Shown here piece after piece: positions 1-12,242 of a stretch of 64,000 nucleotides of DNA. The position numbers were made by a program, and so were the translations under genes. Source of the stretch: Eubacteriales bacterium (GTDB lineage Bacteria > Bacillota > Clostridia > Oscillospirales > CAG-272); NCBI GenBank assembly GCA_045585895.1, contig JAZMZI010000051.1:12696-76695 (forward strand). The letters are read 5' to 3'. Position 1 is the stretch's first letter. Each line of letters opens with the position of its first letter. The notes beneath the pieces were generated by a model. It made no database searches, had not been told where the DNA came from, and was given only the letters and a program-made list of their open reading frames with translations.

Positions 1-550
1 ATTCGAAGGTGTCCGGCGCAATATCATTCCTGAATGCTACCACATAAATTCTTTCTCTGTTCTGTGGCACTCCGAAGTTTTTACTGTTAAGTACTTTGTG
101 GAATACTTTATATCCAAGATCCTCGAAGGTTTTGCAGATAATCTTGAATGTTCTCCCTCTGTCGTGAATTACAAGTCCTTTCACATTCTCACAGAAGATT
201 ACTTTAGGCTTATGATATTCGCAGATTCTTGCAACATCCATGAATAATGTTCCACGGCACATTCCTTTGTAGTTGTCTTCGAATCCCATACGCTGACCCG
301 CCAGACTAAACGCTTGACAAGGAAATCCTGCCAGGCAGATGTCAAACTCAGGCACATCTTTTTCATCAATTTTTGTTATATCTCCTGCTATTGCGAAATC
401 GTCGTCAAAGTTTGCTCTATATGTTTTTTGCGCGTTTTCATCCCATTCGCATACAAACACCGTATCAATATCGTTGCCAAACGCTCTTTCAAAGCCAAGT
501 CGGATTCCACCGATGCCTGCAAATAAGTCTATAGATCTCAGTTTATTCAT
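1..550 (-). CDS. dcm: DNA (cytosine-5)-methyltransferase, first ~183 codons (3' end runs off the window)
   Basis: Absent from the ORF track because it has no stop in the window. Hand translation of the reverse strand from the ATG at 550-548 gives MNKLRSIDLFAGIGGIRLGFERAF...LAGFPCQAFSLAG...FCENVKGL...GVPQNRERIY. These are C5-MTase motifs I (FxGxG), IV (PCQ), VI (ENV) and VIII (QxRxR). The ATG overlaps the vsr stop (ATGA). Confidence 0.9.
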   Translation of the reverse strand, partial: MNKLRSIDLFAGIGGIRLGFERAFGNDIDTVFVCEWDENAQKTYRANFDDDFAIAGDITKIDEKDVPEFDICLAGFPCQAFSLAGQRMGFEDNYKGMCRGTLFMDVARICEYHKPKVIFCENVKGLVIHDRGRTFKIICKTFEDLGYKVFHKVLNSKNFGVPQNRERIYVVAFRNDIAPDTFE

Positions 551-957
551 TTTGAATGTACCGCCTTTTCAATTATATCTGCGCATTGTGCTGTATTCTT
601 TTTGATTTCGTTGCCCCAAAAACGGATTACTGTCCATCCTTCAACTTCGAGTTTTGCAGTTACTTCTGCATCTCGTTCCATATTTCGCTCGATTTTAGGT
701 ATCCAAAATTCTTGGTGCGACTTAAAGTCCTTTTTTCTTTCTTCCCAGTTGTATCCGTGCCAGAACTCGCTATCACAGAAGACCGCAATCTTCCTGCCAA
801 TGAATACAATATCAGGCTTTCCGTATATTCGGTTTACGTTCTTTCTATAACGCAATCCACGATTCCATAGTTCTTTCCGCAACAAGACTTCAATCTTTGA
901 ATCTTTATTTTTAACTTGTTGCATATTGAAGCTTATTTGTTCTTTAGTTTTCTGCAT
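547..957 (-). CDS. vsr: very short patch repair endonuclease
   Basis: 136 aa. Vsr hallmarks are visible: KPDIVF..KIAVFCDSEFWHG and IERNMERD. It is translationally coupled to the downstream C5-MTase, the classic vsr-dcm pairing. Confidence 0.9.
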   Translation of the reverse strand: MQKTKEQISFNMQQVKNKDSKIEVLLRKELWNRGLRYRKNVNRIYGKPDIVFIGRKIAVFCDSEFWHGYNWEERKKDFKSHQEFWIPKIERNMERDAEVTAKLEVEGWTVIRFWGNEIKKNTAQCADIIEKAVHSK

Positions 958-1162
958 TGTTTGGTACTATTTCAACGATATCATCCATTGTACATTCAAG
1001 TGCTGTGCATATCTTAACAAGCACTTCACTGCTTACAACAGCACCATCCTTCTTCATCTTCGCAAGTGTAGCTGGGCTTATTCCGGCTTTCGCAGCGAGC
1101 TCTTTGCTCTTCATTTCACGGTCGATGAGTAGTTTGAAAAGTTTCTTATAGCTTGCAGCCAT
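944..1162 (-). CDS. XRE/Cro-type HTH transcriptional regulator (controller-like, first gene of HTH-vsr-dcm)
   Basis: HTH segment KSKELAAKAGISPATLAKMKKD. I prefer the start at the second Met (1162) because AGGTGG lies 5 nt upstream. The 3' end overlaps the vsr start. Confidence 0.75.
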   Translation of the reverse strand: MAASYKKLFKLLIDREMKSKELAAKAGISPATLAKMKKDGAVVSSEVLVKICTALECTMDDIVEIVPNNAEN

Positions 1163-1197
1163 GTTCCACCTCATAATAAGTATTTTTATACGGTTTT

Positions 1198-1226
1198 ATT
1201 ATATCACTTTTCCATCTAAATTGCAA
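1198..1226 (-). promoter_or_regulatory. sigma-A-type promoter for HTH-vsr-dcm (TTGCAA-17-TATAAT)
   Basis: Reverse strand reads TTGCAA (1226-1221), a 17-nt spacer, then TATAAT (1203-1198). A TTTCGAAA palindrome lies just upstream (about 1235-1242). Confidence 0.55.
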
Positions 1227-1393
1227 GGGGAATTTCGAAAGAATTCAACGAACTTGTAATTTATTAAATCTCATTGTAACCACACATATCAGCACCTCCA
1301 AACGAGCTAACTAATCAGCACATACGGATATGATCACCGCGAAAACTGCTTTTTCTTTGTTTATTGCGGTGCAAATTTTAATTGCTGAACCTC

Positions 1394-1422
1394 TTGACAA
1401 ATGGTTGCAGAAGAGTTACAAT
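1394..1422 (+). promoter_or_regulatory. plus-strand promoter TTGACA-17-TACAAT inside repeat copy A
   Basis: TTGACA at 1394-1399, a 17-nt spacer, TACAAT at 1417-1422. Confidence 0.5.
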
Positions 1423-1429
1423 ACGACGA

Positions 1430-1541
1430 CCCTGGTGGGTAGATTCGGTGATAAAACGACCACAGCAGTTGACCACAAATCCTTGAAATAAAACGATCCG
1501 CTCCCATGAGGCCGAAGCCATCAATTTGGGAGCGGATTTTT
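1430..1541 (+). ncRNA. candidate ~110-nt sRNA (promoter to terminator; no RBS or ORF)
   Basis: Bounded by the promoter at 1394-1422 and an 11-bp hairpin (1496-1506 pairing with 1527-1537) followed by TTTTT. It contains two GACCAC motifs and is convergent with the AEP-helicase gene. Confidence 0.3.
1496..1541. terminator. bidirectional intrinsic terminator-like hairpin
   Basis: ATCCGCTCCCA...TGGGAGCGGAT with TTTTT on the plus strand and TTTTATTT on the minus strand. Confidence 0.6.
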
Positions 1542-1847
1542 ACGACCACATACACGACCATAGACGCGATCGGAGCACCTGGAGACAAGATGCCACGAGA
1601 GCACGAAAGGCCATTTTTGCCGTAGCAGAAAGGTCTGAAAAAAGATAAAATGACCAGAAAAATGTTCAAGTCGCCCTTGGGGTAATGGTGGACTGTATAG
1701 CACACAATGGAATTATTATCACATAATGGACACTATATCACACAAAAAACGTTTTTTTGCTTGTGAACTATCGGTCTCTATCCTTTTTGCACTTTTCATA
1801 TACACATATCAAAACAACTTGCAATAAATGGAAGCCTATGCTATGTA

Positions 1848-4721
1848 TTATAAAACTGTATCCATAAGTTGTCCAGCAATATCTGTGTTTTCGAACCGCA
1901 TAATGCTCTCCTCGTGTGTACCAAAACTGAGGAAATTAACGCTTCCATACCACACAACAGATTGATCGATAACTGTAAATTTCTGATGAAAATCGGATTT
2001 ATAACTAACGATCACGCCGTTTTCTTGTAATTTCTCCGCACACTCGTTAACCGTATCGCGATCTTTATCCTTAAAATCCTCGGGAGGCCGTGTAACTACC
2101 GTTACTTTAACGCCGTTTTCAATAATTGGATCAAGGATTTTAATAAGACTTGTGATCCTGCTCTTCCTCATAAACGGGCTGACGATCAGAATCTCACTTT
2201 GAGCGTTTTGCAAATCATTACAAAATCCGTGATAGAAAGATTTACCGTCATAGATCAGATCGGGAGCCGCATTGATATTTGACAGTAATTTCGTCTTGTA
2301 TCCGATGGAGGAATAGCTTTTCACGCGTTTCTGATACATTCTTTCAAGCACGGGAATATGAATATCCACGTAATCGTACACTTGAACTTCGGTTTTGCCT
2401 TCGAAATTTCTGTGGAGTCTGCCGGCATACTGCGCAACTTTTCCCTTCCATGCAATTGGCAATGCAAGGAATAACGTGTCAAGTCGAGGATAGTCAAAGC
2501 CTTCTCCTACGTATTTACCCGTTGCAACTATGACAACCGATTCATCACCTGGGATAGATTCAAGACGTTCCAGCGTTTCTCTGCGAGATTTTGTGGATGC
2601 TGTTCCTACGAGTTGAATAACATTTTTACAGTAACAAGAAAGCCGTTCTGCAAGCAATGCAACATGCTCGCGCCGTTCTGTCAATACAATTGGATTTCGC
2701 CCCTCTTTTAGTGCTTCGGCAACATCCGAAACAATCATATTATTTCGGATCTCATTCTCGGATAATTTCTTATAGACATCTGTGATGCTTGCTTTTTCTT
2801 TGGATGGATAGCGCGTGTTTGTAAATCTTGGCACAAGATAATGCTCAAAGCTGCGCTTTTCAGCTTGCTCCTTCGCATCAACACGGTATCGAATCGCACC
2901 GCACTGCATGAAAATTATCGGATGATGACCATCCTGTCTTGTCGGCGTTGCGGTCAGACCATACACATATTTCGCGTTTGCATATTTGAGTATCATTTCA
3001 AAGTTAACGGCAGAAACATGGTGACATTCGTCAACAATGATCATCCCGTAGTTCCGCACAAGCTCTTTTACCTCGTCTCCATTAACAAGCGACTGCATAA
3101 CGGCAACATCGACAACGCCGTGTACGGTATCTTTTCCTGCACCGAGAACGCCCACGGGCGACCAAACCTTCCTGCGGCCTCTGCCCTTCTTTTCCTCGGG
3201 CAGTGTTATGTCAAAATGCAGAAAACTTTCAAGAGATTTTTTCCATTGTGTCATCAAAGCCTGTGTATGAACCAATATTAGGGTGTTTGTTTTTCTTTGC
3301 CCAATCATATACGAGCCAATGACCGTCTTACCGAACGCCGTTGTTGCAGATAGAACGCCCGTATTTTGTTCCAATAGCGCATCTGCCGCAGGCTGTTGTT
3401 CCTCGCGCAACTCACCGTTAAAAGTAACAGGGATAATTTCTCCTGAATTGGTTTTATCCTCGATCACATATGACACGTTGGCTTCATCGAGTAGATTGCA
3501 AAGTGCGTCCTCACAACCGCGAGGAATGGCAATATACTCTTCCGTGATGTCGGCTGTGCATATGATTCGTGGCTTATCGTATATGGGCAATCTCATTGCC
3601 TGAGCACGGTAAAAATCGGGATTTTTGAATGCCGCCAAGCGTTTGATCTGATTCTTCGCGTTTGCGGATAATTCTGCCGCAGGAATATACAACATGTTTG
3701 CATGGACGATGTTCAGTACCATAGGGAAATCACTATGCGTAATTTTAATTTTCTTCTTCGTTTCCCAAGGCTTACTATCGGATTCGCTGACGAGTTTACC
3801 AAGCTCTCCGTCCTTGCCGAATGATAAAACGAGTGTTTCCACTGCAGCTGCAGTCATTTTTTGAACAGACGAAAGATATGCCCATTGATCGTCATAAGGA
3901 CGGAATTGCTCATCTACAAACACACTGTTTCCACTTTTCCGTGCCAGTCCTTGTAAAGGCAAAGCAACAAGATTACCGAATCCACCATCGGGCATAGTGT
4001 CTTGGTTGGGAAATAGTCTGTCGTATGACTTGAAAGATAACTCACCGCGCTTCTCCATCGCCTTAGTCAAAATACCGCTTCCAAGCTTACGAGCTAATAC
4101 AGCAGGAACAGGCGACTCGAAGAATATCCAAGCGTGAGCTCCGTTTCCCGAACGGGATCGTTCCACGCATATAGGAACATTTAATTCTTCACATACCTCT
4201 CTAAAAGCAGTAACATCTTTTTCAAACGAGTCATCATCAAAGTCGGCGCATAGAAAATGACAAGTCTCATCCTGTAGCATTGGATAGATTCCTATCACAT
4301 CACGTGGTAATCCATCCTTGCCCTCAAGATGTTTATAAATGTCTTCATCAGTTAAGGATTTTAACACCCGATTGGGACAATTGGCGCACTTGTACTTCCT
4401 TTTGTCGCATAAGCCCTCTGCCCATTCATTTTCACACACGGGCTGATAGCCGCTTTTTCCGCTCGTCGTACTTTGCCACCGTTTTGCAAACACATCCTCC
4501 CTGCCGTGAAACAGTGAACGGAACAACTCGATCTTTTCCTTTGAAGAGCTGTATTTATTTACAGAGGCAGCATGGATTATGGGTATCTCGATATTCTCTT
4601 GAGGTGCCTCTGCAAAGCCAAGCTGCCGCCGCAACTGCAAGTTTTCTTCTGAAAGCCTTTTGTTCTCACGCTCTAATTCATTATAGCGAAGCAAAAGCTC
4701 TCGATATAGCTTCTCATACAT
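1848..4721 (-). CDS. AEP (PrimPol-like primase-polymerase) - SF2 DEAH-type helicase - PLD/HKD nuclease fusion protein, 957 aa
   Basis: N-terminal coiled coil, then Cys knuckle C96/C105/C112/C115. AEP motifs are LCADFD (D160, D162) and SRSGNGAHAW (H196). SF2 motifs are AFGKT (K465), DECH (564-567), TAT (590-592) and QYAGRLHR (764-771). There is one complete HKD motif, HQKFTVIDQSVVWYGSVN (H912, K914, D919, GSxN). Confidence 0.85.
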   Translation of the reverse strand: MYEKLYRELLLRYNELERENKRLSEENLQLRRQLGFAEAPQENIEIPIIHAASVNKYSSSKEKIELFRSLFHGREDVFAKRWQSTTSGKSGYQPVCENEWAEGLCDKRKYKCANCPNRVLKSLTDEDIYKHLEGKDGLPRDVIGIYPMLQDETCHFLCADFDDDSFEKDVTAFREVCEELNVPICVERSRSGNGAHAWIFFESPVPAVLARKLGSGILTKAMEKRGELSFKSYDRLFPNQDTMPDGGFGNLVALPLQGLARKSGNSVFVDEQFRPYDDQWAYLSSVQKMTAAAVETLVLSFGKDGELGKLVSESDSKPWETKKKIKITHSDFPMVLNIVHANMLYIPAAELSANAKNQIKRLAAFKNPDFYRAQAMRLPIYDKPRIICTADITEEYIAIPRGCEDALCNLLDEANVSYVIEDKTNSGEIIPVTFNGELREEQQPAADALLEQNTGVLSATTAFGKTVIGSYMIGQRKTNTLILVHTQALMTQWKKSLESFLHFDITLPEEKKGRGRRKVWSPVGVLGAGKDTVHGVVDVAVMQSLVNGDEVKELVRNYGMIIVDECHHVSAVNFEMILKYANAKYVYGLTATPTRQDGHHPIIFMQCGAIRYRVDAKEQAEKRSFEHYLVPRFTNTRYPSKEKASITDVYKKLSENEIRNNMIVSDVAEALKEGRNPIVLTERREHVALLAERLSCYCKNVIQLVGTASTKSRRETLERLESIPGDESVVIVATGKYVGEGFDYPRLDTLFLALPIAWKGKVAQYAGRLHRNFEGKTEVQVYDYVDIHIPVLERMYQKRVKSYSSIGYKTKLLSNINAAPDLIYDGKSFYHGFCNDLQNAQSEILIVSPFMRKSRITSLIKILDPIIENGVKVTVVTRPPEDFKDKDRDTVNECAEKLQENGVIVSYKSDFHQKFTVIDQSVVWYGSVNFLSFGTHEESIMRFENTDIAGQLMDTVL
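1851..2249 (-). other. PLD-like (HKD) nuclease domain (aa ~825-957)
   Basis: A single HxK(x)4D(x)6GSxN motif. Boundaries are approximate. Confidence 0.8.
2322..3404 (-). other. SF2 helicase core (aa ~440-800)
   Basis: Walker A GKT, DECH box, TAT and QxxGRxxR. Boundaries are approximate. Confidence 0.8.
3822..4559 (-). other. AEP/PrimPol-like domain (aa ~55-300)
   Basis: DxD and sGxGxH catalytic motifs as listed for the parent CDS. Boundaries are approximate. Confidence 0.7.
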
Positions 4722-4736
4722 TTCACAGCCTCGTTT

Positions 4737-6023
4737 TTACGCCATTTTGTATTTCGTTTTATTTCCGTTTCCGACCTTTATAATCAAGCCTTTATCAAGT
4801 AGTGCTGCAATCGCAACAATTGTAGTTGTCTGCGAAAATCCGAGAGCCTTTTGAATCTCCGAGCGAGACTTAATTCCCTCTTTAAGCACAGATAACACAC
4901 CTTGCTCGTTTTCGGTCAACTCAACCTTTGTTTCCTTCACCGCCGCGTTTGTATTAGGCAACGCAATCTTAAATGCGTTATCGGATATTTCTATATGAGG
5001 CTCAAGACCATATTCTCTGTATGCTTCAATAATTTTGGGCATACCCGTTCCGTAAGCTTCAATCAAATGCAAACGATAGAACACATCTGCTAACTTTTTA
5101 TTTCGTGCAATTGAAATACCAAGCAAAATATCACTTTGTGAAATACTTCGCGCTAAGCCACCGATGGATACAAATTCTATTCTGTTATCAAAAATGCTGA
5201 TAAGTGTGCTTGCGGAAAAGCTATATTCTCTGTGAACGATGGCATTCAACAATGCCTCTCTGATTGCTTCCGTAGGATATGCTCTTTTATCAACACGGTA
5301 CAGACCTTCCGTATGTGCGTGTGTATGATTAAACTGATCTATAAACTGATACGCATCGTTAAGCTGCTTTAACAACGAACCGCAAAATTCCCGTCTATCC
5401 TTAAATACCGTCTTTTGCTCGCCTTCAAAAACTGCAATTTTTACAGTATGGGTGCACTGATCTGAAAGTAACAATGCAAGATTGGTATACGTTCCGTCCT
5501 CGCCAATCAAGCCAAGACTTCTCTTCTGTGCTTCGCCGAAAGGAATTTTCTTATTTTCAAAAACAAAATCTGCTTCATTGAAGGTTAATTCCTGAATAAG
5601 CGAGCGCGCCTCCTCATAGCTATCTCCGGCAGTCTCACGTATCATAGAGAGAATTGCACTCTCGGAAGCAGGAACAGATGATGCCCCCTGTCTCACATAT
5701 ACCCCTTCCGGACGAATACCTTTAGCTGCCAAATAGTAAGGACGGGCAGTACCGCGATTAACGGTGATTTTTACAACCTTCTTATCTTGAACGGTTTCTA
5801 CAGTAATATCACAAAACATTGCAAGATCCGGCTTAATCGCATCTCGGTTCACGTTTGACACCTGTAGCATAACTCCGTCAATATTATTGACCTCAACAGC
5901 ATTGACGTCATCGTCAATTCCGATATAAAGATTACCACCATCGGTATTTGCAAAAGCAACAAGCGTCTTTTTTATATCCTCAACATATTCCCTTTTAAAC
6001 TCGGTATTCTTATCTTCCAACAT
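4737..6023 (-). CDS. Schlafen-like AlbA_2 domain protein with HATPase_c_4-like region and C-terminal winged HTH, 428 aa
   Basis: N-terminus NTEFKREY...LVAFANTDGGNLYIGIDDD is the AlbA_2 ('divergent AAA') signature. The central REALLNAIVHREYS is the ATPase-like region typical of these proteins. The C-terminus SEIQKALGFSQTTTIVAIAALLDKGLIIKVGNGNKTKY is a wHTH. Its stop lies 15 nt before the AEP-helicase ATG, which has its own GAGG. Confidence 0.75.
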   Translation of the reverse strand: MLEDKNTEFKREYVEDIKKTLVAFANTDGGNLYIGIDDDVNAVEVNNIDGVMLQVSNVNRDAIKPDLAMFCDITVETVQDKKVVKITVNRGTARPYYLAAKGIRPEGVYVRQGASSVPASESAILSMIRETAGDSYEEARSLIQELTFNEADFVFENKKIPFGEAQKRSLGLIGEDGTYTNLALLLSDQCTHTVKIAVFEGEQKTVFKDRREFCGSLLKQLNDAYQFIDQFNHTHAHTEGLYRVDKRAYPTEAIREALLNAIVHREYSFSASTLISIFDNRIEFVSIGGLARSISQSDILLGISIARNKKLADVFYRLHLIEAYGTGMPKIIEAYREYGLEPHIEISDNAFKIALPNTNAAVKETKVELTENEQGVLSVLKEGIKSRSEIQKALGFSQTTTIVAIAALLDKGLIIKVGNGNKTKYKMA

Positions 6024-6062
6024 ATTTTACCTCCAATTCCGTTACTAACGGTTACTAACGAT

Positions 6063-6091
6063 ATTATATCAGTTATTAGCGTTACTGTCAA
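6063..6091 (-). promoter_or_regulatory. consensus promoter of the AlbA_2 / AEP-helicase-PLD operon
   Basis: Reverse strand reads TTGACA (6091-6086), a 17-nt spacer, then TATAAT (6068-6063), about 40 nt upstream of the ATG at 6023. GGAGG serves as RBS. Confidence 0.65.
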
Positions 6092-6131
6092 TAGATTCTA
6101 TTAAATTATCTCCATTTTTTCGTCGACCTTT

Positions 6132-6290
6132 TTCTTTGTTTATTGCGCCCCAAATTTTGGGGTACGGTAAACGAAAAACGAGGCCCTGTGTATCACAATA
6201 AACGGATACGCAGAGCTTGTTTTTTGACCACATGTTTGACCACTTCGACGATTGGATTACACGGAAACAGTAGTACACGAGAGCACGAAA
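6132..6290. repeat. non-coding module copy B (between the decayed and the intact cassette)
   Basis: TTCTTTGTTTATTGC (6132-6146), perfect palindrome CCCCAAATTTTGGGG (6148-6162), hairpin 6186-6194/6205-6213 plus T-run, GACCAC x2 (6226, 6238) and CACGAGAGCACGAAA (6276-6290). Confidence 0.8.
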
Positions 6291-6313
6291 ATGTACGCTT
6301 TGGTTGACAGAAT

Positions 6314-6340
6314 AGCACTAAAAAGCACTAGATAGCACTA
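6314..6340. repeat. three AGCACTA iterons with exact 10-nt phasing
   Basis: AGCACTA at 6314-6320, 6324-6330 and 6334-6340, immediately after a TTGACA hexamer (6304-6309). Confidence 0.7.
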
Positions 6341-6377
6341 GAAAAATATAAAAATCGGTCTTGGGGTGGTAGAGGCC

Positions 6378-6405
6378 GCAAGTTCAAGTCTTGTCACTCA
6401 GACCA
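6378..6405 (+). other. tRNA gene 3'-end fragment (T-arm + acceptor 3' strand + discriminator A + CCA); no 5' half
   Basis: GCAAG-TTCAAGT-CTTGT gives a G53-C61 pair and a TTCRA T-loop, followed by CACTCAG-A-CCA. The preceding TGGTAGAG resembles a D-loop. No complementary CTGAGTG or anticodon arm can be drawn upstream. Confidence 0.6.
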
Positions 6406-6453
6406 TATCGAGTGTTCATAACAGATTCAAGTTATGGACACTCGATATTTTTT
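6406..6453 (+). terminator. intrinsic terminator (17-bp stem with one G-T, T6)
   Basis: TATCGAGTGTTCATAAC...GTTATGGACACTCGATA followed by TTTTTT. Confidence 0.75.
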
Positions 6454-6490
6454 GATTATGCTTACTTTTCGGTTAAATATTGAGTTGTTT

Positions 6491-6515
6491 TGAGCAGGTT
6501 CGCCTGCTCTTTTTT
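6491..6515 (+). terminator. second plus-strand intrinsic terminator
   Basis: GAGCAGG-TTCG-CCTGCTC followed by TTTTTTT. On the minus strand there is no T-run after the hairpin. Confidence 0.7.
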
Positions 6516-6521
6516 TGGGGG

Positions 6522-7295
6522 TTATACTGCATTAGATAAGTATTCGATGGCTACACCCTTGCGTGAGTCGAGGATAGCATTTTGCAAATCATTACAAAAT
6601 CCGTGGTAGAAAGATTTACCATCATAGATCAGATCAGGAGTAGCATTGATATTTGACAACAACTTCATTTTGTACCCAATAGCGGAATAGCTTTTCACGC
6701 GCTTTTGATACATTCTCTCAAGCACGGGAATATGAATATCCACATAGTCGTAAACCTGCACCTCTGTTTTTCCGTCATATGCAGTAACATCTTTTTCAAA
6801 CGAGTCATCATCAAAGTCGGCACAAAGAAAATGACAAGTCTCATCCTGTAGCATAGGATAAATTCCTATTACATCACGCGCTAATCCTTCCTTGCTCTCA
6901 AGATGTTTATAAATGTCTTCATCAGTTAAGGATTTTAACACCCGATTGGGACAATTGGCGCACTTATACTTCCTTTTGTCGCATAAGCCCTCTGCCCATT
7001 CGTTTACGCATACAGGCTGATATCCGCTTTTGCAGCTCGTCGTGCTTTGCCAACGCCTTGCAAATACATCTTCCCTCCCTTTGAATAGTGAACGGTACAG
7101 TTCGATCTTTTCTTTTGATGAACTGTATTTGTTGATTGCATTTACTTCGCTTACAGAGATTTTGGGGGCATTATCATTCATCTCGGCTAAGCCCGGTTGC
7201 TACCGCATGCGTTCGTTTTCTTCCGCAAGACGCTTATTTTCGCTCTCTAATTCTTTATATCGAAGCCAAAGCTCGTTGTATAACCTCTCATACAT
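6522..7295 (-). pseudogene. decayed paralogue of the AEP-helicase-PLD gene
   Basis: The reading frame starts MYERLYNELWLRYKELESENKRLAEENERMR and then hits an in-frame TAG (7202-7200). The rest matches aa ~50-172 of the intact protein. At about 6779 it jumps directly to aa ~775-840 (GKTEVQVYDY...CNDLQNA). Homology is lost at about 6578. The helicase core and the HKD motif are absent. Nucleotide identity to the intact copy is about 85-90% by eye. Confidence 0.85.
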
Positions 7296-7309
7296 TTTGC
7301 GACCTCAAT

Positions 7310-7461
7310 TTAGACCACTTTATACTTAGTCTTGTTTCCGTTTCCGACTTTTACGATCAAGCCTTTCTCGATTAAGGCAGATATTGTTACTATCGTAGTA
7401 ATATGCTCAAGGAAAAATCATCTTTTGCTTTTTCGATATAACTTACAATACTCTCAAACAT
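7310..7461 (-). pseudogene. remnant of the upstream partner gene: wHTH tail only, frameshifted
   Basis: GGAGG plus ATG (7461) gives MFESIVSYIEKAKDDF. A frameshift follows at a T-run. The other frame reads EHITTIVTISALIEKGLIVKVGNGNKTKYKVV*, matching the last ~32 aa of the 428-aa protein. The 14-nt gap to the pseudo-AEP ATG mirrors the intact operon. Confidence 0.7.
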
Positions 7462-7581
7462 CTAAATTTCCTCCACGCTATATTAACGAAATTTACTTTC
7501 ATATTTTTAATTTATACCACAAATTTCGTCCTTTTTCAACCGCATTATATGAACACGGCGACGGATTTCTCCGCCGCCCTG

Positions 7582-7718
7582 TTCTTTGTTTATTGCTCCC
7601 AATTATTGGGGAACGGTAAATAAAAAATTAAGCTCCGTGCATCACAATTCGGAATGCACGGAGCTATATTTTTTGACCACTTACAGAGTCCGATCACATG
7701 GAGACGAGGGCGCAGTGC
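7582..7718. repeat. non-coding module copy C (between the GNAT stop and the decayed cassette)
   Basis: TTCTTTGTTTATTGC (7582-7596), palindrome CCCAATTATTGGG (7598-7610), 12-bp hairpin (7631-7642/7654-7665), GACCAC (7675-7680) and a degenerate GAGACGAGGGCGCAGTGC. Confidence 0.8.
7622..7674. terminator. bidirectional intrinsic terminator (serves the GNAT gene on the minus strand)
   Basis: AAAAAA, then AGCTCCGTGCAT...ATGCACGGAGCT, then TTTTTT. Confidence 0.75.
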
Positions 7719-7724
7719 TTAAAT

Positions 7725-8264
7725 TTACACGTTAAGTTTCTTATTCCAAGACTCTCTCGTCATAAGAAGCGCGTGACCCGTGCGGGTCTCTCCGAGGAGG
7801 CGGACTTCAATGCCTTCAGCGGTATGGTGATAGGTAAATCCCAGCTTTTCCATCACACGGCGGCTCTTGACATTTCCCTCGTAGTGACCGCACCAGATAC
7901 GCGCCATACCGAGGTCTTCAAAGGCATAGCGGAGTATTTCGCGTGCCGCTTCGGGAATAAGACCCTGCCCCCAAAAGGGCTTGCCGATCCAATAGCCGAG
8001 CTCGTATTCATCGTCGTTTTCGGCAAGGTCGTTGCGGTGGAGGCCTATACTGCCGATGGGCTTGCCGTTTTCTTTGAGGCAAACGGCGTAGGTTTCGGGC
8101 GCGGAAAGCACGTTTTTAATTATCTCACGGCTGTTTTCCACGCTCGTGTGGGGTGGAAATCCCGCAGGCAGACCTATATCGGGGTCGCTTGCGTATTTGT
8201 ATAATTCTTCTGCGTCGTCCTCGCGCCAAGGGCGAAGAATGAGACGTTCCGTTTCAAATGTCAT
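7725..8264 (-). CDS. GNAT family N-acetyltransferase (RimJ/RimL-like)
   Basis: [30 protein letters not shown] and [10 protein letters not shown]. Confidence 0.8.
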
Positions 8265-8279
8265 ATTTTTCTCCTTTTT

Positions 8280-8765
8280 TCAAAAACGATATAAATACTC
8301 GTCTGCCTCTTCTCTGCTCTTGAAAATTATTATGTTTTTATCACTGTATTTTTCAAGCAGATCAAGCACTTTGGGGCGTTCTTTTTCGTTATATTTCTTT
8401 ATAAAATCCAAAAATTCGGTATCCGTTTCGGTCTCGACCCACGGCATATCGCTTCGGGGCTTTCCACGTCTTTCTTTGATACCGTCAAGGCAAATTTCAA
8501 GCGGGAAATCGAGAAAAAAGCAAGTGTCGCAAGCCGCAAGCCGCAGCTCCATCGTTGAGCCGTAATTACCGTCAATTATCCATTCGTCAGCATCAAGAAC
8601 GGCAGAAAGCCTTTCGCGAAAAAGGCTCTTATCAACCGTGGTTTTATCGGAGTTCCAATACATCATATCGAGATGATAAAGCGGAAGCCTCGTCTTTTTA
8701 TGCAATGACCGTGAAAAGGTGCTTTTGCCGCTTCCCGGACAGCCGATCACTATTATTTTTTTCAT
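8280..8765 (-). CDS. P-loop NTPase / nucleotide-kinase-like protein (topology-modulation/adenylate-kinase-like)
   Basis: Walker A GCPGSGKST directly after MKKIIVIG. I use the internal Met (8765) rather than the ORF-track start (8786), which would overlap the radical SAM gene. Confidence 0.6.
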   Translation of the reverse strand: MKKIIVIGCPGSGKSTFSRSLHKKTRLPLYHLDMMYWNSDKTTVDKSLFRERLSAVLDADEWIIDGNYGSTMELRLAACDTCFFLDFPLEICLDGIKERRGKPRSDMPWVETETDTEFLDFIKKYNEKERPKVLDLLEKYSDKNIIIFKSREEADEYLYRF

Positions 8766-8775
8766 ATTTTTACCT

Positions 8776-9525
8776 TTAAGGGGCATAACCCTTTATAATT
8801 TCCATAATGTCTTTTTCACAAACGTTTCCGTCGAGGACGTCACTGTTTGCCGAGAATGAGATACAACGCAGGTCGCGCGGGTCCTCTACGTATGGATTTT
8901 CGGGCTTGGAATTCTTAAAATAATCCGAAAGATACTTAAGCGCGTTGCCCTCTGGGAAAACGATATTTCCCTCTCCCTCGGGGATATTCATATCGTCAAA
9001 GCTATTGAGAAGCTCTTTTGTTTTGCTGTTATAGGGATTTTCATCATCACGGCTTACAAGCCACGCGGGAGAAAGCTTCACGGGGATACCCATTGTTTTC
9101 GCTTCTGCGGCAAAGGTTTTTACCGTGTCAAGCGGAATAGTTTCCTGATGAAAGGCGTCCACCGATAATAACAGGTCGTTTACGCCGCACTCGGCAAGCT
9201 TTTTCGCAACGGAGCGGATTTGCTCAATATTCTTTGAAAAATATCCGTTGGTGATAACCTGACGGCGAGGAATATTCAACTCCTTTGCGGTACTCATAAC
9301 GGCATACACCGCAGTCGGGTGCAAAAGCGGCTCGCCTCCGAACGTCATTACGGTTTTGATATCGTATTCAGCCGCGATCTTTCGCACTGCATCGGCGGCA
9401 ATCTGCGGGTCGATTCGTTCTCCGCAAGAAATATGATCACCTTCGGAGCAGTGCTTGCACCTTCCCGTACAGGCGTTTGTCACCGCGAATTCAATTTTAT
9501 TTAAATTCTTAAGATATTGATTCAT
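8776..9525 (-). CDS. radical SAM protein (small, no SPASM/C-terminal cluster)
   Basis: CTGRCKHC (CxxxCxxC) at aa 19-26 and the GGEPLL motif. Confidence 0.75.
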   Translation of the reverse strand: MNQYLKNLNKIEFAVTNACTGRCKHCSEGDHISCGERIDPQIAADAVRKIAAEYDIKTVMTFGGEPLLHPTAVYAVMSTAKELNIPRRQVITNGYFSKNIEQIRSVAKKLAECGVNDLLLSVDAFHQETIPLDTVKTFAAEAKTMGIPVKLSPAWLVSRDDENPYNSKTKELLNSFDDMNIPEGEGNIVFPEGNALKYLSDYFKNSKPENPYVEDPRDLRCISFSANSDVLDGNVCEKDIMEIIKGYAP

Positions 9526-9688
9526 ATTTAACTTGATCCTTCACTGTGTTTTCGCAAAAAACGATTGCGATTTAATTATACCACCACTCTTTTGAAATAT
9601 CAAGATATAATCAGTTGATTTTCCCATTCACGCATAAAAAAGCGGAAAGACTGCATATTATCATATAAAAAGATCTAAAGGTGGGCAT

Positions 9689-10213
9689 ATGAAACAAAAG
9701 ATAGGACTTTGGCAGTTGATGGGCTTCGCGGTAACGTCGCTCGGCGGAACTATTTTACACTTTTTATACGATTGGCTTGGGAAAGCCGCGTGGATAGCGC
9801 CCTTTTCGGGAGTGAACGAATCGACTTGGGAGCATATGAAGCTTCTTTTTTGGCCGATGTTTATTTTTGCGCTGGTGCAAAGCTTTTTCTTCCGCGACAG
9901 AAAGGATTTTTGGTGCGTTAAGCTTCGCGGAACGCTTTCGGGGCTTACCCTCATACCCGTTCTTTTCTACACCTACAACGGCGTTATCGGCAGATCCCCC
10001 GACTGGCTTAATATAGCAATTTTCTTTATTTCCGCGGCGATCGCTTATATTTACGAAACGAAGCTCTTTAACGAAAACAAATTGAGCTGCAAAACGCAAA
10101 GACGGGCGTTGGCAGCGCTTATAGTGATAGGAATCCTCTTTATAGTCTTCACGTTCTTCACGCCCGAGCTTGGCATTTTCAGAGACCCCTTGACGGGAAC
10201 CTATGGAATATAA
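9689..10213 (+). CDS. polytopic membrane protein (DUF6512-like by recollection)
   Basis: About 5 hydrophobic helices; AAAGGTGGG RBS. Confidence 0.5.
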   Translation: MKQKIGLWQLMGFAVTSLGGTILHFLYDWLGKAAWIAPFSGVNESTWEHMKLLFWPMFIFALVQSFFFRDRKDFWCVKLRGTLSGLTLIPVLFYTYNGVIGRSPDWLNIAIFFISAAIAYIYETKLFNENKLSCKTQRRALAALIVIGILFIVFTFFTPELGIFRDPLTGTYGI

Positions 10214-10395
10214 TTGCGAAAATACCGCAATTATATTTTCATTTTCATTGGACGCACAAAAATTGACTTGCGACGGTGTCGCAAGTCAATTTTTGTGTTA
10301 AGTTATAAATTCAATCGGATTTTTACCAAAGAAATACGTTATAGACACCGACGGCTATCGCCAAAGTGCAAAGGATACGCGCCAAGACGAACATT

Positions 10396-10650
10396 TTACG
10401 GCTTTTTCTGAACACAACGGATATCACCAACGCACCGATCACGGCGAGAACGCTTACGATACCGATCAGAATATCGAAAGGTATCATCCAGAATATACAG
10501 GTCTACGTCAGAGCTTGCCGTGTCCACCGCCGCCTGTCCGTCCTCGGCGCACACCACTGTATAGCCTTCGCCCGAGAGCAAAAGCGTCAGCACGTCGCGT
10601 ATTTCCTTTTAGTCGTCTGCAACAAGAATATATTTTTTCCCGTCTTTCAT
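10396..10650 (-). pseudogene. response-regulator receiver domain remnant
   Basis: MKDGKKYILVADD, then TAA (10611-10609, where GAA would be expected), then KEIRDVLTLLLSGEGYTVVCAEDGQAAVD...DLYILDD. The sequence then loses similarity. No output domain or kinase is nearby. Confidence 0.7.
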
Positions 10651-10772
10651 ACGTTTACCTCGAAATTTATCCGTTTATCGTTTTTCAACTTGATTGTATC
10701 ACAAAACCGTCATTTTGGCAACCGATTTTTCAAATATCACCTATCCGATTTACAAGTTATGAGGATAGTAGG

Positions 10773-11408
10773 TCACGCTTCTTCTCCACCGCGGAGCTTG
10801 AGATCGGCAAGACCGCTCTTATGAAGCAATACCGTACCCAAAAGAAGCGTACCCTGTCCGACTACGTTAACGCCCTCGGCTATCCAGTTCATAACCGCTT
10901 CGGCAAAATCCTGACTCGAAAGATATCCCATACCGAGCGAGCAGATAAAGGATATTGCAAAAATCGCTATAAGCCAAGGCTTTTTAAGCTTTACTGACAA
11001 AATACAGAGCACTACGTCCATGATTCCAAGCCCCGCCACCATAAGTCCTACGAAAACGAAGGTTCCCGAGAATACGGGAGGAACGGTCGCCATAAGTGCG
11101 TTCCCCGACTGCTTATGTATAAGCATAGCAAGAATTCCTATACCCGCAAGCAGAAAACCGATGGATTGAACAGGAAAGAACATATGGTCAAGTGCTTCAA
11201 AATTGCATACACCCGCCGCGTAAAGCAGTTTCCACGTAGCCTTGAGCGCCCCCGCGACAGCAACGTCGATAACGCCTGCCGAGAAAAGCGCAAACGCGCC
11301 CTTGCTCATTTTGTTGTAAAGATCTCGCAGAAGGATCACGGAGGCAATCGCAAAGCAGACGACGGGAATATAATCTACCAATGCCATAGAAACGGAAAAG
11401 TCATTCAT
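10773..11408 (-). CDS. integral membrane protein, unknown function
   Basis: About 6 hydrophobic segments; no recognisable motif. Confidence 0.5.
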   Translation of the reverse strand: MNDFSVSMALVDYIPVVCFAIASVILLRDLYNKMSKGAFALFSAGVIDVAVAGALKATWKLLYAAGVCNFEALDHMFFPVQSIGFLLAGIGILAMLIHKQSGNALMATVPPVFSGTFVFVGLMVAGLGIMDVVLCILSVKLKKPWLIAIFAISFICSLGMGYLSSQDFAEAVMNWIAEGVNVVGQGTLLLGTVLLHKSGLADLKLRGGEEA

Positions 11409-11429
11409 ATGCGTTCTCCTAAAGCTTTT

Positions 11430-12242
11430 TTATTTTTTCTTGTTAAGGTGATAGATGGGAAGCAAAGGAATAATTATAGGGGTCTTATCGGCGTAAGTAT
11501 TGTACTCCTCGTTTTCGCCGTAACGAGCCATCTGACGCTTTTCAAGTCTCTGAGCGCCGTTGAACATAATGTAAACGATGCATATATAAGCGAGAACGGC
11601 AACGATCCACTGACCAACACCCTGATATGCGGTAACGCCGCTTACGAATACGCCCGTCCAGAAAAGGATCTCACCGAGGTAGTTGGGGCAACGGCAGATT
11701 CTGTAAAGCCCTTTAGTTGCGACCATATCGGGGCGAGCCTTCTTCTGCGCTGACTTCTGCTTGTCTGCAATAGACTCAAGAATAAGTCCGAATACTGAAA
11801 TAACAAATCCGACTGCGGGAACGATAAAATCGGTAGAACCGTTATCATAACGGAAAAGCATGGGGCTGACCTGAGCTACGTAAAGAACCGAAACGCACAC
11901 CCATATAGTTACGAGAACGAATATCGGCATCTTCTTTTCACCGTTCTTTGCAAGGGTGTCCTTTGCAACGTCGGTCTTCTTGAAGGTAACGTTCTTAAGC
12001 TCTCTTACGAGAAGGAAACCCGAAAGGCGCGCGCCGTACGCAATAAAGAGCGCGGTCTGAACGAGAACTATCCAAAGAGGAGTTGACGAGGGATTGATGA
12101 GATACATTACGAGAACGGTAATACCGCCTGCCGCTACCGCAAAGCCGTATCCGATAGAGAGAAAATATACGAACTTATAAAATCCTACGGCACAGGCAAC
12201 GGCACAGACCGCAAGAAGAATTCCTAAAAGTGACCAAGGCAT
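11430..12242 (-). CDS. DUF1295 / steroid-5-alpha-reductase-like membrane protein
   Basis: C-terminal GLYRICRCPNYLGEILFWTG motif typical of this family. Confidence 0.6.
   Translation of the reverse strand: MPWSLLGILLAVCAVACAVGFYKFVYFLSIGYGFAVAAGGITVLVMYLINPSSTPLWIVLVQTALFIAYGARLSGFLLVRELKNVTFKKTDVAKDTLAKNGEKKMPIFVLVTIWVCVSVLYVAQVSPMLFRYDNGSTDFIVPAVGFVISVFGLILESIADKQKSAQKKARPDMVATKGLYRICRCPNYLGEILFWTGVFVSGVTAYQGVGQWIVAVLAYICIVYIMFNGAQRLEKRQMARYGENEEYNTYADKTPIIIPLLPIYHLNKKK

Follow-up and report, generated by a model that had tools for sequence, protein, structure and literature searches.

Junction modules of a defence-cassette array in an uncultured gut clostridium: probable tandem accretion of integrase-less elements at a tRNA-Pro(GGG) gene

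The window analysed here is a stretch of 64,000 nucleotides from the 85 kb contig C51 of an Eubacteriales bacterium (GenBank assembly GCA_045585895.1; G000:C51:12696-76695 in our labels). Between an HTH-vsr-dcm group on the left and a GNAT acetyltransferase gene on the right it carries two AlbA_2/AEP gene cassettes, one intact and one decayed, and three co-oriented copies of a structured non-coding module, called A, B and C, that bracket them; all the genes at 1-9525 lie on the minus strand, according to open reading frames and Pfam domains (Table 1). Each module opens with a short site that elsewhere in the same genome bounds elements with two tyrosine recombinase genes, and module B closes by repeating the 3' half of a tRNA-Pro(GGG) gene located 9 kb to the left of the window. 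We think that the modules are probably junction blocks left by the accretion of integrase-less cassettes and islands at this tRNA gene.

Coordinates without a contig prefix are window positions, and C51:, C14: and C98: designate contigs of the genome itself (G000; 2.4 Mb assembly, 158 contigs, 85% complete). The comparison set consists of 39 genomes of the genus (G labels), and L labels are fetched loci. The records with close relatives of the cassette are metagenome-assembled genomes of uncultured gut and rumen Clostridia, Acutalibacteraceae and Candidatus Pelethomonas.

The three modules and the site that opens them

The earlier note, made from the letters of the window only, had described a 15-mer identical in the three modules, and we indeed found TTCTTTGTTTATTGC without mismatch at 1353, 6132 and 7582 on the plus strand; these are the only exact copies in the whole genome. 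With up to two mismatches allowed there are four matches in the window for 0.23 expected, a number reached by none of 100 shuffles of the window. The likeness goes further than the 15-mer; a likeness confined to it would, according to the note, have refuted the proposal. Pairwise alignment gives 77% identity between B and C over 120 nt, and for A and B 63% in an alignment of 148 nt, with 90% in another, separate stretch of 31 nt.

The 15-mer turns out to be one half of a site of about 35-40 bp, with the aligned consensus gcTTTTTCTTTGyTTAYTGC-N4-CAAATTTTGA, in which an 18-bp conserved block (with TTTTTCTTTG among the conserved pieces) is followed by N4 and by a 10-bp palindromic block (CAAATTTTG). 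A weight matrix (PWM) of this site, used with a cut-off of 14 bits, has 12 matches in the genome and none in the reversed genome, and a degenerate pattern run on the 39 genomes has 63 matches in 24 of them, against about 10 for the reversed pattern. Site C has a low score because its right half belongs to a gapped subclass; one subclass has longer conserved arms, GCTCCCAA...TTGGGAGC. Four sites of the genome are strong, each of them is at a junction of a mobile element or cassette, and all are co-oriented. Orientation is likewise uniform on each of the eight contigs that have more than one site, which together carry 25 (seven on G054:C92, three each on G043:C9, C51, L070 and L071, two each on L072, L091 and L094). 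A search to the right of the GNAT gene found no further site.

Several details of the modules had to be corrected, even if most of the motifs listed in the note are where it placed them. The short palindromes GCAAATTTTAATTGC, CCCCAAATTTTGGGG and CCCAATTATTGGG, whose symmetry had been taken for covariation, are variants of the right half of the site with its conserved CAAATTTTG; the core of this half, CAAA-T-TTTG, is intrinsically palindromic, so that the symmetry mostly reflects sequence conservation, and as RNA hairpins these palindromes fold no more stably than shuffles. The argument from covariation holds for the long hairpins of B and C (-23.8 and -26.6 kcal/mol), which, far from being unrelated as first reported, are homologous and show three compensatory pair changes in their stem; that of A (-27.9 kcal/mol) does differ from them both in sequence and in its position within the module, its sequence being conserved in A-type modules of G054, G019 and L071. 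All three are more stable than shuffles (z of -6.0 in A and down to -7.4 in C). Their flanking A- and T-runs and the converging transcription that they face suggest that they are terminators.

The GACCAC motifs had been counted as four, two and one at 11-12 nt spacing. This stands for B (6226, 6238) and for C (7675, plus a variant GATCAC at 7692); module A has three exact copies, at 1458, 1471 and 1544, of which the first two are 13 nt apart, and one GACCAT at 1556, 12 nt from the third. These motifs could represent either an accessory site for recombination or a -35-like TTGACC; we rejected a CtsR operator because the spacing is 12 nt and not 10. Finally, CACGAGAGCACGAAA is identical in A and B (1594 and 6276) and is not intact in C, as the note had said.

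Module A also contains a predicted promoter, P1, that is absent from B and C; in 13 modules from other genomes both hexamers and the 17-nt spacing are conserved while the spacer sequence varies. In these 13 modules P1 is followed by ACRAC, conserved across species, and in module A a strong putative terminator comes about 70 nt later; positions 1394-1541 may thus encode a candidate RNA of about 110 nt that carries two GACCAC motifs. A complete tRNA, a tmRNA or a described RNA family can be discarded: ARAGORN finds neither tRNA nor tmRNA in window 1-12000, Rfam 15 gives only sub-threshold chance matches in window 1-10000 (for example uup, 28 bits for a cut-off of 36.8, on the C hairpin), and the one tRNA-like piece is the 3' half of tRNA-Pro(GGG) described below.

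Mobile elements and cassettes bounded by the site

The same site is tightly linked to tyrosine recombinase genes. On C14, sites at 4402 and 10331 bound an element of 5.9 kb that comprises, after the first site, two convergent recombinase genes (C14:4461-7060; 480 and 386 aa; PF00589 and PF14659), then a MobL relaxase gene and two small ones and finally, before the second site, an Xis/AlpA-like HTH_17 gene (C14:9984-10304). A 7.4 kb element with this gene order lies between sites 21614 and 28979 of G054:C92, and another recombinase pair is bounded by sites on G002:C14, so that the two-recombinase element has direct copies of the site at both ends in three cases. C98 shows the order tRNA-Pro(TGG), terminator, site and the same recombinase pair. 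Of the six fetched loci of the 480-aa recombinase, five have a site 36-64 nt beyond its stop codon, convergent with the gene. The window itself is free of recombinase genes, as the earlier note had stated, and this extends to the whole of C51, where a profile search found no PF00589 (tyrosine) or PF00239 (serine) recombinase; the other contigs of the genome encode nine tyrosine recombinases, of which two pairs stand beside this very site.

Some other features of these contigs can be mentioned here. Just outside the right end of the C14 element, at C14:10350-10700, a repeat of about 120 nt (ctcctcacctata...acaggggtttgaggggg) is present at least twice. The genes at C14:700-4315 and at window 7725-9525, both beside tRNA-Pro sites, have in common a P-loop AAA_18 kinase and a radical SAM protein, to which the former adds a DUF5919 and an HD protein, and the latter GNAT.

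Are the cassettes of the window bounded in the same way? The intact one has its own predicted promoter, TTGACA-17-TATAAT, at about 6063-6091. The existence of a decayed relative, proposed in the note, is borne out by three pieces (6576-6776, 6781-7080 and 7182-7406) that match 2202-2402, 4207-4506 and 4608-4833 of the intact cassette at 72-91% identity; its 5' flank, 7494-7581, recurs beside other sites in G020, G053 and G043. Relatives of the AEP-helicase-PLD protein number 424 in the genome collection and come from many phyla, and PADLOC matches this protein only piecewise (Cas-associated PrimPol, PbeA, Mokosh PLD); the pair that it forms with AlbA_2 seems to be a widespread defence candidate not yet described.

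Co-oriented sites also bracket the cassette in close relatives (L070, L071, L072, L091 with 4575 bp between them, and L094 with 4822 bp). At the promoter end, in L069 and L070, whose contigs reach that far, homology to the intact cassette ends in site B (6147-6163). An alignment with L073 added locates the break within about 25 bp that span the site: 73 nt to the left of and into site B are identical in the window and the three loci, bar one base in L073, after which L070 diverges behind TTCTTTGT into an A-type module, L069 diverges behind CAAATTTTG into unrelated DNA, and L073 continues into a B-type module as the window does. These 73 nt, which include the flank 6063-6131, are thus nearly invariant though the cassette DNA is 86-93% identical in the four genomes, and a flank more conserved than the genes may be a promoter, an arm for the recombinase, or both.

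At the other end, homology to L069, L070, L071, L072 and L105 begins at the AEP stop codon (1847-1849), within 2 nt of it in all five, with three unrelated kinds of neighbour beyond. A second site at this boundary was considered and rejected, since only L091 has one, L071 and L105 showing a possible degenerate left half. About 100 nt past the stop codon, L069, L070 and L072 share a conserved block, aaaggagacttttgaaaattcttctcaaagtgatagagtcaaatagttcaagtctccttt, with a 9-bp closing stem and a T-loop-like GTTCAAGTC, which in L070 and L072 is preceded by ACTAAA-type repeats at 10-nt spacing.

In L070 a B-like module stands 3' of the cassette and an A-like one 5', which is the reverse of the window, so that cassettes and modules assort independently; a fixed mobile unit of site, module and cassette can be dismissed on this ground. 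In L091 the site abuts the stop codon without any module. The content between the fixed flanks is also variable, since the same HTH...GNAT locus in G011:C45 has one module and an RlaP-family gene instead of the AEP cassettes.

The tRNA-Pro(GGG) repeat and the 15.4 kb island

ARAGORN places a tRNA-Pro(GGG) gene at C51:3629-3704. The 101 nt at C51:3659-3759, from the anticodon loop CTTGGGGT through the 3' half of the tRNA to the end of its terminator, recur at window 6360-6459 with 99 of 101 positions identical. Module B thus reaches position 6459, and its end is the right-hand repeat of a segment of 15.4 kb, which contains restriction-modification genes, HTH-vsr-dcm, site and module A, the intact cassette, and site and module B. 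The part of module B between its GACCAC pair and the tRNA core, which is conserved in L045, L055, L050, L073 and L070, can be read as an arm next to the tRNA repeat. Module A closes with a decayed copy of the same repeat; modules of its type in G054 end twice in an intact 3' half (47/47), and in other module copies the tRNA-derived end is cut short at irregular points.

The anticodon loop of tRNA-Pro(GGG) is, to judge from a case in G043, a real integration site in this genus. In L149 (G043:C16:36700-42600) an element of 4.5 kb, at 237-4830, lies between the full tRNA gene and a 3'-half copy, inserted in the anticodon loop, and encodes a tyrosine integrase of 314 aa together with a REP_ORF2-G2P rolling-circle Rep. 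A third match to the core in the genome studied here, at C108, is a short coincidence beside an unrelated gene.

The rest of the modules can be compared with the DNA downstream of this tRNA gene. In most relatives examined, tRNA-Pro(GGG) or a 3'-half copy of it is followed by a terminator, a T-rich block TTCTTTTATTTTCTCGC..., a long hairpin and TTTTTCGCCTTT-GACCACATGTTTGACCAC-TTACGGAG, and the GACCAC pair comes 183 nt after the tRNA core (157 nt in one). Modules B and C share with this downstream flank the layout of site, hairpin, T-run and GACCAC; the 20-mer GACCACATGTTTGACCACTT of module B is the one found there, and GACCACTTACAGAG of module C matches its GACCACTTACGGAG. From this layout and this continuation we take module C for the resident flank downstream of the tRNA gene, at whose left edge a cassette has been inserted.

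Other tRNA remnants were seen on the way. In L156 (G019:C67) and L162 (G014:C4), tRNA-Pro(GGG) is followed by serial partial tRNA-like 3' ends (T-arm, acceptor strand, CCA, terminator) with GC-rich spacers, which may be further integration relics. At C14:130-700 and C98:3465-3960 (minus strand) an intact tRNA-Pro(TGG) has before it a truncated 5' half, or two such halves, 38 nt long and broken off in the anticodon loop behind TTTGGGA, each followed by about 165 nt ending in GACCACAGATTTGACCAC; in the C98 copy the D-loop also contains about 130 nt of inserted sequence. These look like relics of elements carrying a tRNA 5' half. A GACCAC pair is found about 50 nt before tRNA-Pro(TGG) on both contigs.

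In G054:C92 the whole pattern is present on a single contig. The array starts with tRNA-Pro(GGG), a site and an 18.5 kb unit, followed by a site and an A-type module ending in a tRNA 3' half, then by two genes and a site, by the recombinase element and a site, and by a 1.7 kb unit and a site, and after a 21 kb unit with synteny to C51:4-14 kb it finishes with two sites and an A-type module that again ends in a tRNA 3' half. A homologue of the GNAT gene lies inside a site-bounded unit in G054, so that the operon that bounds the array of the window may itself be cargo.

Table 1. Features of the array and its neighbours (window positions; terminators and promoters are predictions)
Feature	Position	Strand	Basis
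Site A, att-type: 15-mer 1353-1367, GGTG, CAAATTTTA	1348-1382	+	exact 15-mer; PWM 47.9 bits
Site B, att-type: 15-mer 6132-6146, GCCC, CAAATTTTG	6127-6161	+	PWM 47.5 bits
Site C, att-type, TCCCAAT..TTGGGG subclass	7577-7611	+	exact 15-mer; PWM 16.0 bits
Predicted promoter P1, TTGACA-17-TACAAT, in module A	1394-1422	+	kept in 13 module copies of other genomes
Middle of module A: GACCAC 1458 and 1471, putative terminator hairpin 1495-1538, GACCAC 1544, GACCAT 1556	1458-1561	+	motif scan, fold
CACGAGAGCACGAAA common to A and B	1594-1608	+	exact; kept in modules of relatives
Decayed tRNA-Pro(GGG) repeat: core CTTGGGGT 1676, terminator remnant ATGGACACT 1726, T-run	1676-1760	+	alignment with module B repeat
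Module B hairpin 6172-6226 (putative two-way terminator) and GACCAC pair 6226-6243	6172-6243	+	fold z -6.9; 3 compensatory pairs vs C
Module B, putative arm beside tRNA repeat: CACGAGAGCACGAAA 6276, TTGACA, AGCACTA x3 at 10-nt spacing (6314, 6324, 6334)	6244-6359	+	
Right-hand direct repeat (attR-like): tRNA-Pro(GGG) anticodon loop to 3' end 6360-6405, terminator stem ~6405-6448	6360-6459	+	99/101; terminator z -9.2
Module C: hairpin 7621-7675, single GACCAC 7675, then TTACAGAG, curtailed before GNAT	7612-7718	+	fold z -7.4
Intact cassette: AEP (TOTE-type PrimPol)-SF2 helicase-PLD gene 1848-4721 (957 aa), AlbA_2/HATPase_c_4 gene 4737-6023 (428 aa)	1848-6131	-	Pfam
Decayed cassette: three AlbA_2/AEP cassette pieces, different 5' gene stub and promoter flank	6522-7581	-	Pfam: AEP-TOTE N-terminal half only
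dcm	2-550	-	Pfam
vsr	547-957	-	Pfam
Cro/C1 HTH	944-1174	-	Pfam
GNAT acetyltransferase gene, right-hand bound of array	7725-8264	-	Pfam
GNAT, P-loop kinase, radical SAM operon	7725-9525	-	Pfam

Interpretation, rival explanations and known systems

The earlier note had left two possibilities for the module, a reused insertion or recombination site and a 3' element borne by the cassette. The former is strengthened by the sites that flank integrase-bearing elements on both sides, by their place just past the recombinase stop codon and by the break of cassette homology at the site. The latter, in the form given, is not supported: the modules of L070 are reversed, the neighbour in L069 is unrelated, and in L091 the site stands at the stop codon without a module. 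On these repeats, sites, integrase linkages and junction breakpoints we base the hypothesis, which we consider quite probable, of a tandem accretion of integrase-less cassettes and islands at a tRNA-Pro(GGG) hotspot, in the manner of cis-mobilizable elements (CIMEs), the modules being blocks at attachment (att) site junctions.

Each block would open with the att site of about 35-40 bp (15-mer plus CAAATTTTG) used in this genus by small mobilizable elements with genes for a tyrosine recombinase pair, a MobL relaxase and an Xis-like HTH protein, and would continue with a putative two-way terminator hairpin and the GACCAC direct repeats, as downstream of the tRNA gene in relatives. Full-length blocks would end in the tRNA 3' half and terminator, the direct repeat left by integration in the anticodon loop. 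The array would grow by successive site-specific integrations followed by decay, with the 15.4 kb segment, from the tRNA gene to the repeat that ends module B, as a composite island devoid of an integrase, and with the decayed cassette, site C and module C as older resident content downstream of the original tRNA gene; this is the order of events that we infer. Recombinases encoded elsewhere, on C14 and C98, would move the integrase-less cassettes in trans.

Several points weigh against this hypothesis. In five genomes the cassette boundary at the AEP stop codon has no recognisable site, L091 alone having one. The genome, 85% complete, contains no matching integrase for the tRNA site, its best match to the G043 integrase being 32% identical. 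The GACCAC repeats are absent from the ends of the integrase-bearing elements (C14, G054), and we reject the view that these pairs serve the two-recombinase element as arm-type sites, the pair belonging to the tRNA-Pro flank. Given the strong conservation of P1, module A may act at the RNA level too.

This last point leads to another hypothesis, improbable in our opinion, according to which the module is mainly a functional RNA or a regulatory 3' element, that is, a P1-driven small RNA with GACCAC motifs, a tRNA-like end and terminators that insulate or regulate a converging defence operon, the repeats being kept for their function. It would account for a P1 conserved around a variable spacer in 13 modules, for the strong terminators after P1 and for the three compensatory changes of the B/C hairpin, but not for modules B and C, which have no P1, nor for the lack of an Rfam match, the ragged cuts in other copies of a tRNA-like end that reproduces the 3' half of a real tRNA gene with its terminator, or the independent assortment of modules and cassettes; it is compatible with the accretion hypothesis for module A only. 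The idea that the module belongs to the generic dispersed repeats, whether of the REP (repetitive extragenic palindromic) or of the MITE (miniature inverted-repeat transposable element) kind, is hardly credible and can be considered refuted: short, structured, repeated and non-coding as the module is, it is not scattered over the genome, a possibility that the note had itself raised against its proposal, since there are three exact 15-mers and four strong sites, all co-oriented and at junctions of mobile elements or cassettes.

The two remaining rivals concern the way in which the array arose. A local tandem duplication of cassette and flank followed by divergence, without site-specific recombination, would fit two adjacent and co-oriented cassettes with 72-91% identity; nevertheless module A is of another type than B and C, the 101-nt repeat copies a tRNA gene 15 kb away, breakpoints between genomes fall inside the site, and the site bounds unrelated units in many genomes, integrase-bearing elements included, so that we regard this scenario as largely refuted and very unlikely. 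It is slightly easier, though we still doubt it strongly, to imagine that the site is used by Xer-type recombinases of the host (dif-exploiting or pdif elements) or by an integron-type integrase, rather than by the recombinase pair of the mobilizable elements. Most site-bounded units have no integrase, the centre of the site is palindromic and there is a lone Xer-like PF00589 gene on C92. However, a Xer dif or pdif site has 28 bp in an 11-6-11 layout, bound by XerC and XerD, and the layout here is different; there are several sites per genome, clustered after tRNA-Pro and not single at the terminus, the linkage with the recombinase pair is tight (36-64 nt), the cassettes have their own promoters and, unlike attC, the site is conserved in sequence.

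A bolder idea, which we find possible without expecting it to be right, is that the site of about 40 bp defines an integron-like but unrelated cassette system of gut Clostridia, in which multi-gene defence cassettes with their own promoters and no recombinase, and conserved junction blocks, with their terminator, GACCAC repeats and P1 promoter, serving as accessory recombination or insulation modules, form arrays seeded downstream of tRNA-Pro genes, with insertion, excision and reshuffling of the cassettes carried out in trans by the tyrosine recombinase pair of mobilizable elements. The accretion of integrative elements and their relics at tRNA genes is already well known as a mechanism, and the value of the present case thus resides in the annotation, and in a possible new cassette-exchange site, more than in a new principle. 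The accretion hypothesis would explain how a defence island with the AlbA_2 and AEP-helicase-PLD pair and restriction-modification modules is built up and turned over, it would make the 40-bp site and the tRNA-Pro 3'-half repeats a sequence signature for defence cassettes in uncultured gut Clostridia, and it names a candidate helper, the element with two tyrosine recombinases, MobL and Xis.

How does this array compare with known systems? In integrons, IntI with attI and the Pc promoter stands beside an array of promoterless cassettes, and attC is conserved in fold and not in sequence. The outline is alike, with co-oriented cassettes, a recurring recombination site between them and no recombinase in most cassettes; however, there is no IntI beside the array nor any recombinase on the contig, the cassettes are multi-gene with a TTGACA-17-TATAAT promoter of their own, and the site is conserved in sequence and is not a folded attC. 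We therefore do not classify the array as an integron.

Islands beside RNA genes can also be compared. The ssrA-specific genomic islands of Dehalococcoides (PMC3146451) differ by their target, which here is tRNA-Pro and not tmRNA. The tycheposon islands of Prochlorococcus arise by repeated integration beside tRNA genes (bioRxiv 10.1101/2020.12.28.424599) and resemble the present array in that older elements are displaced inward by newcomers, former junctions can be recognised from partial tRNA copies and degenerate remnants, and defence genes are among the cargo; unlike them, our case involves gut Clostridia, other recombinases and an additional non-tRNA site that bounds cassettes.

The best comparison is with CIMEs and their tandem accretion at tRNA genes, as in the islands related to ICESt1/ICESt3 of Streptococcus thermophilus and the composite islands at tRNA-Lys of S. 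agalactiae (PMC5704250). There too, units without an integrase retain att repeats on their flanks and form tandem stacks with an integrase-bearing relative that uses the same att site, the repeat comes from the end of a tRNA gene and older members are decayed (PMC5704250). In our array the direct repeats are tRNA-derived (99/101) and integration and transfer genes are lost (no PF00589 or PF00239 on C51), while integrase-bearing elements at the same att exist on G043:C16 for the tRNA core and on C14 and C98 for the 40-bp site; the latter has the marks of an att site, with copies at both element ends, an adjoining integrase gene and homology that breaks at the site. What distinguishes the array from these CIMEs is the interleaving of two att systems, the anticodon-loop repeat of tRNA-Pro and a separate site of about 40 bp, and a candidate helper that is a mobilizable element of 6-7 kb with two tyrosine recombinases, located on other contigs.

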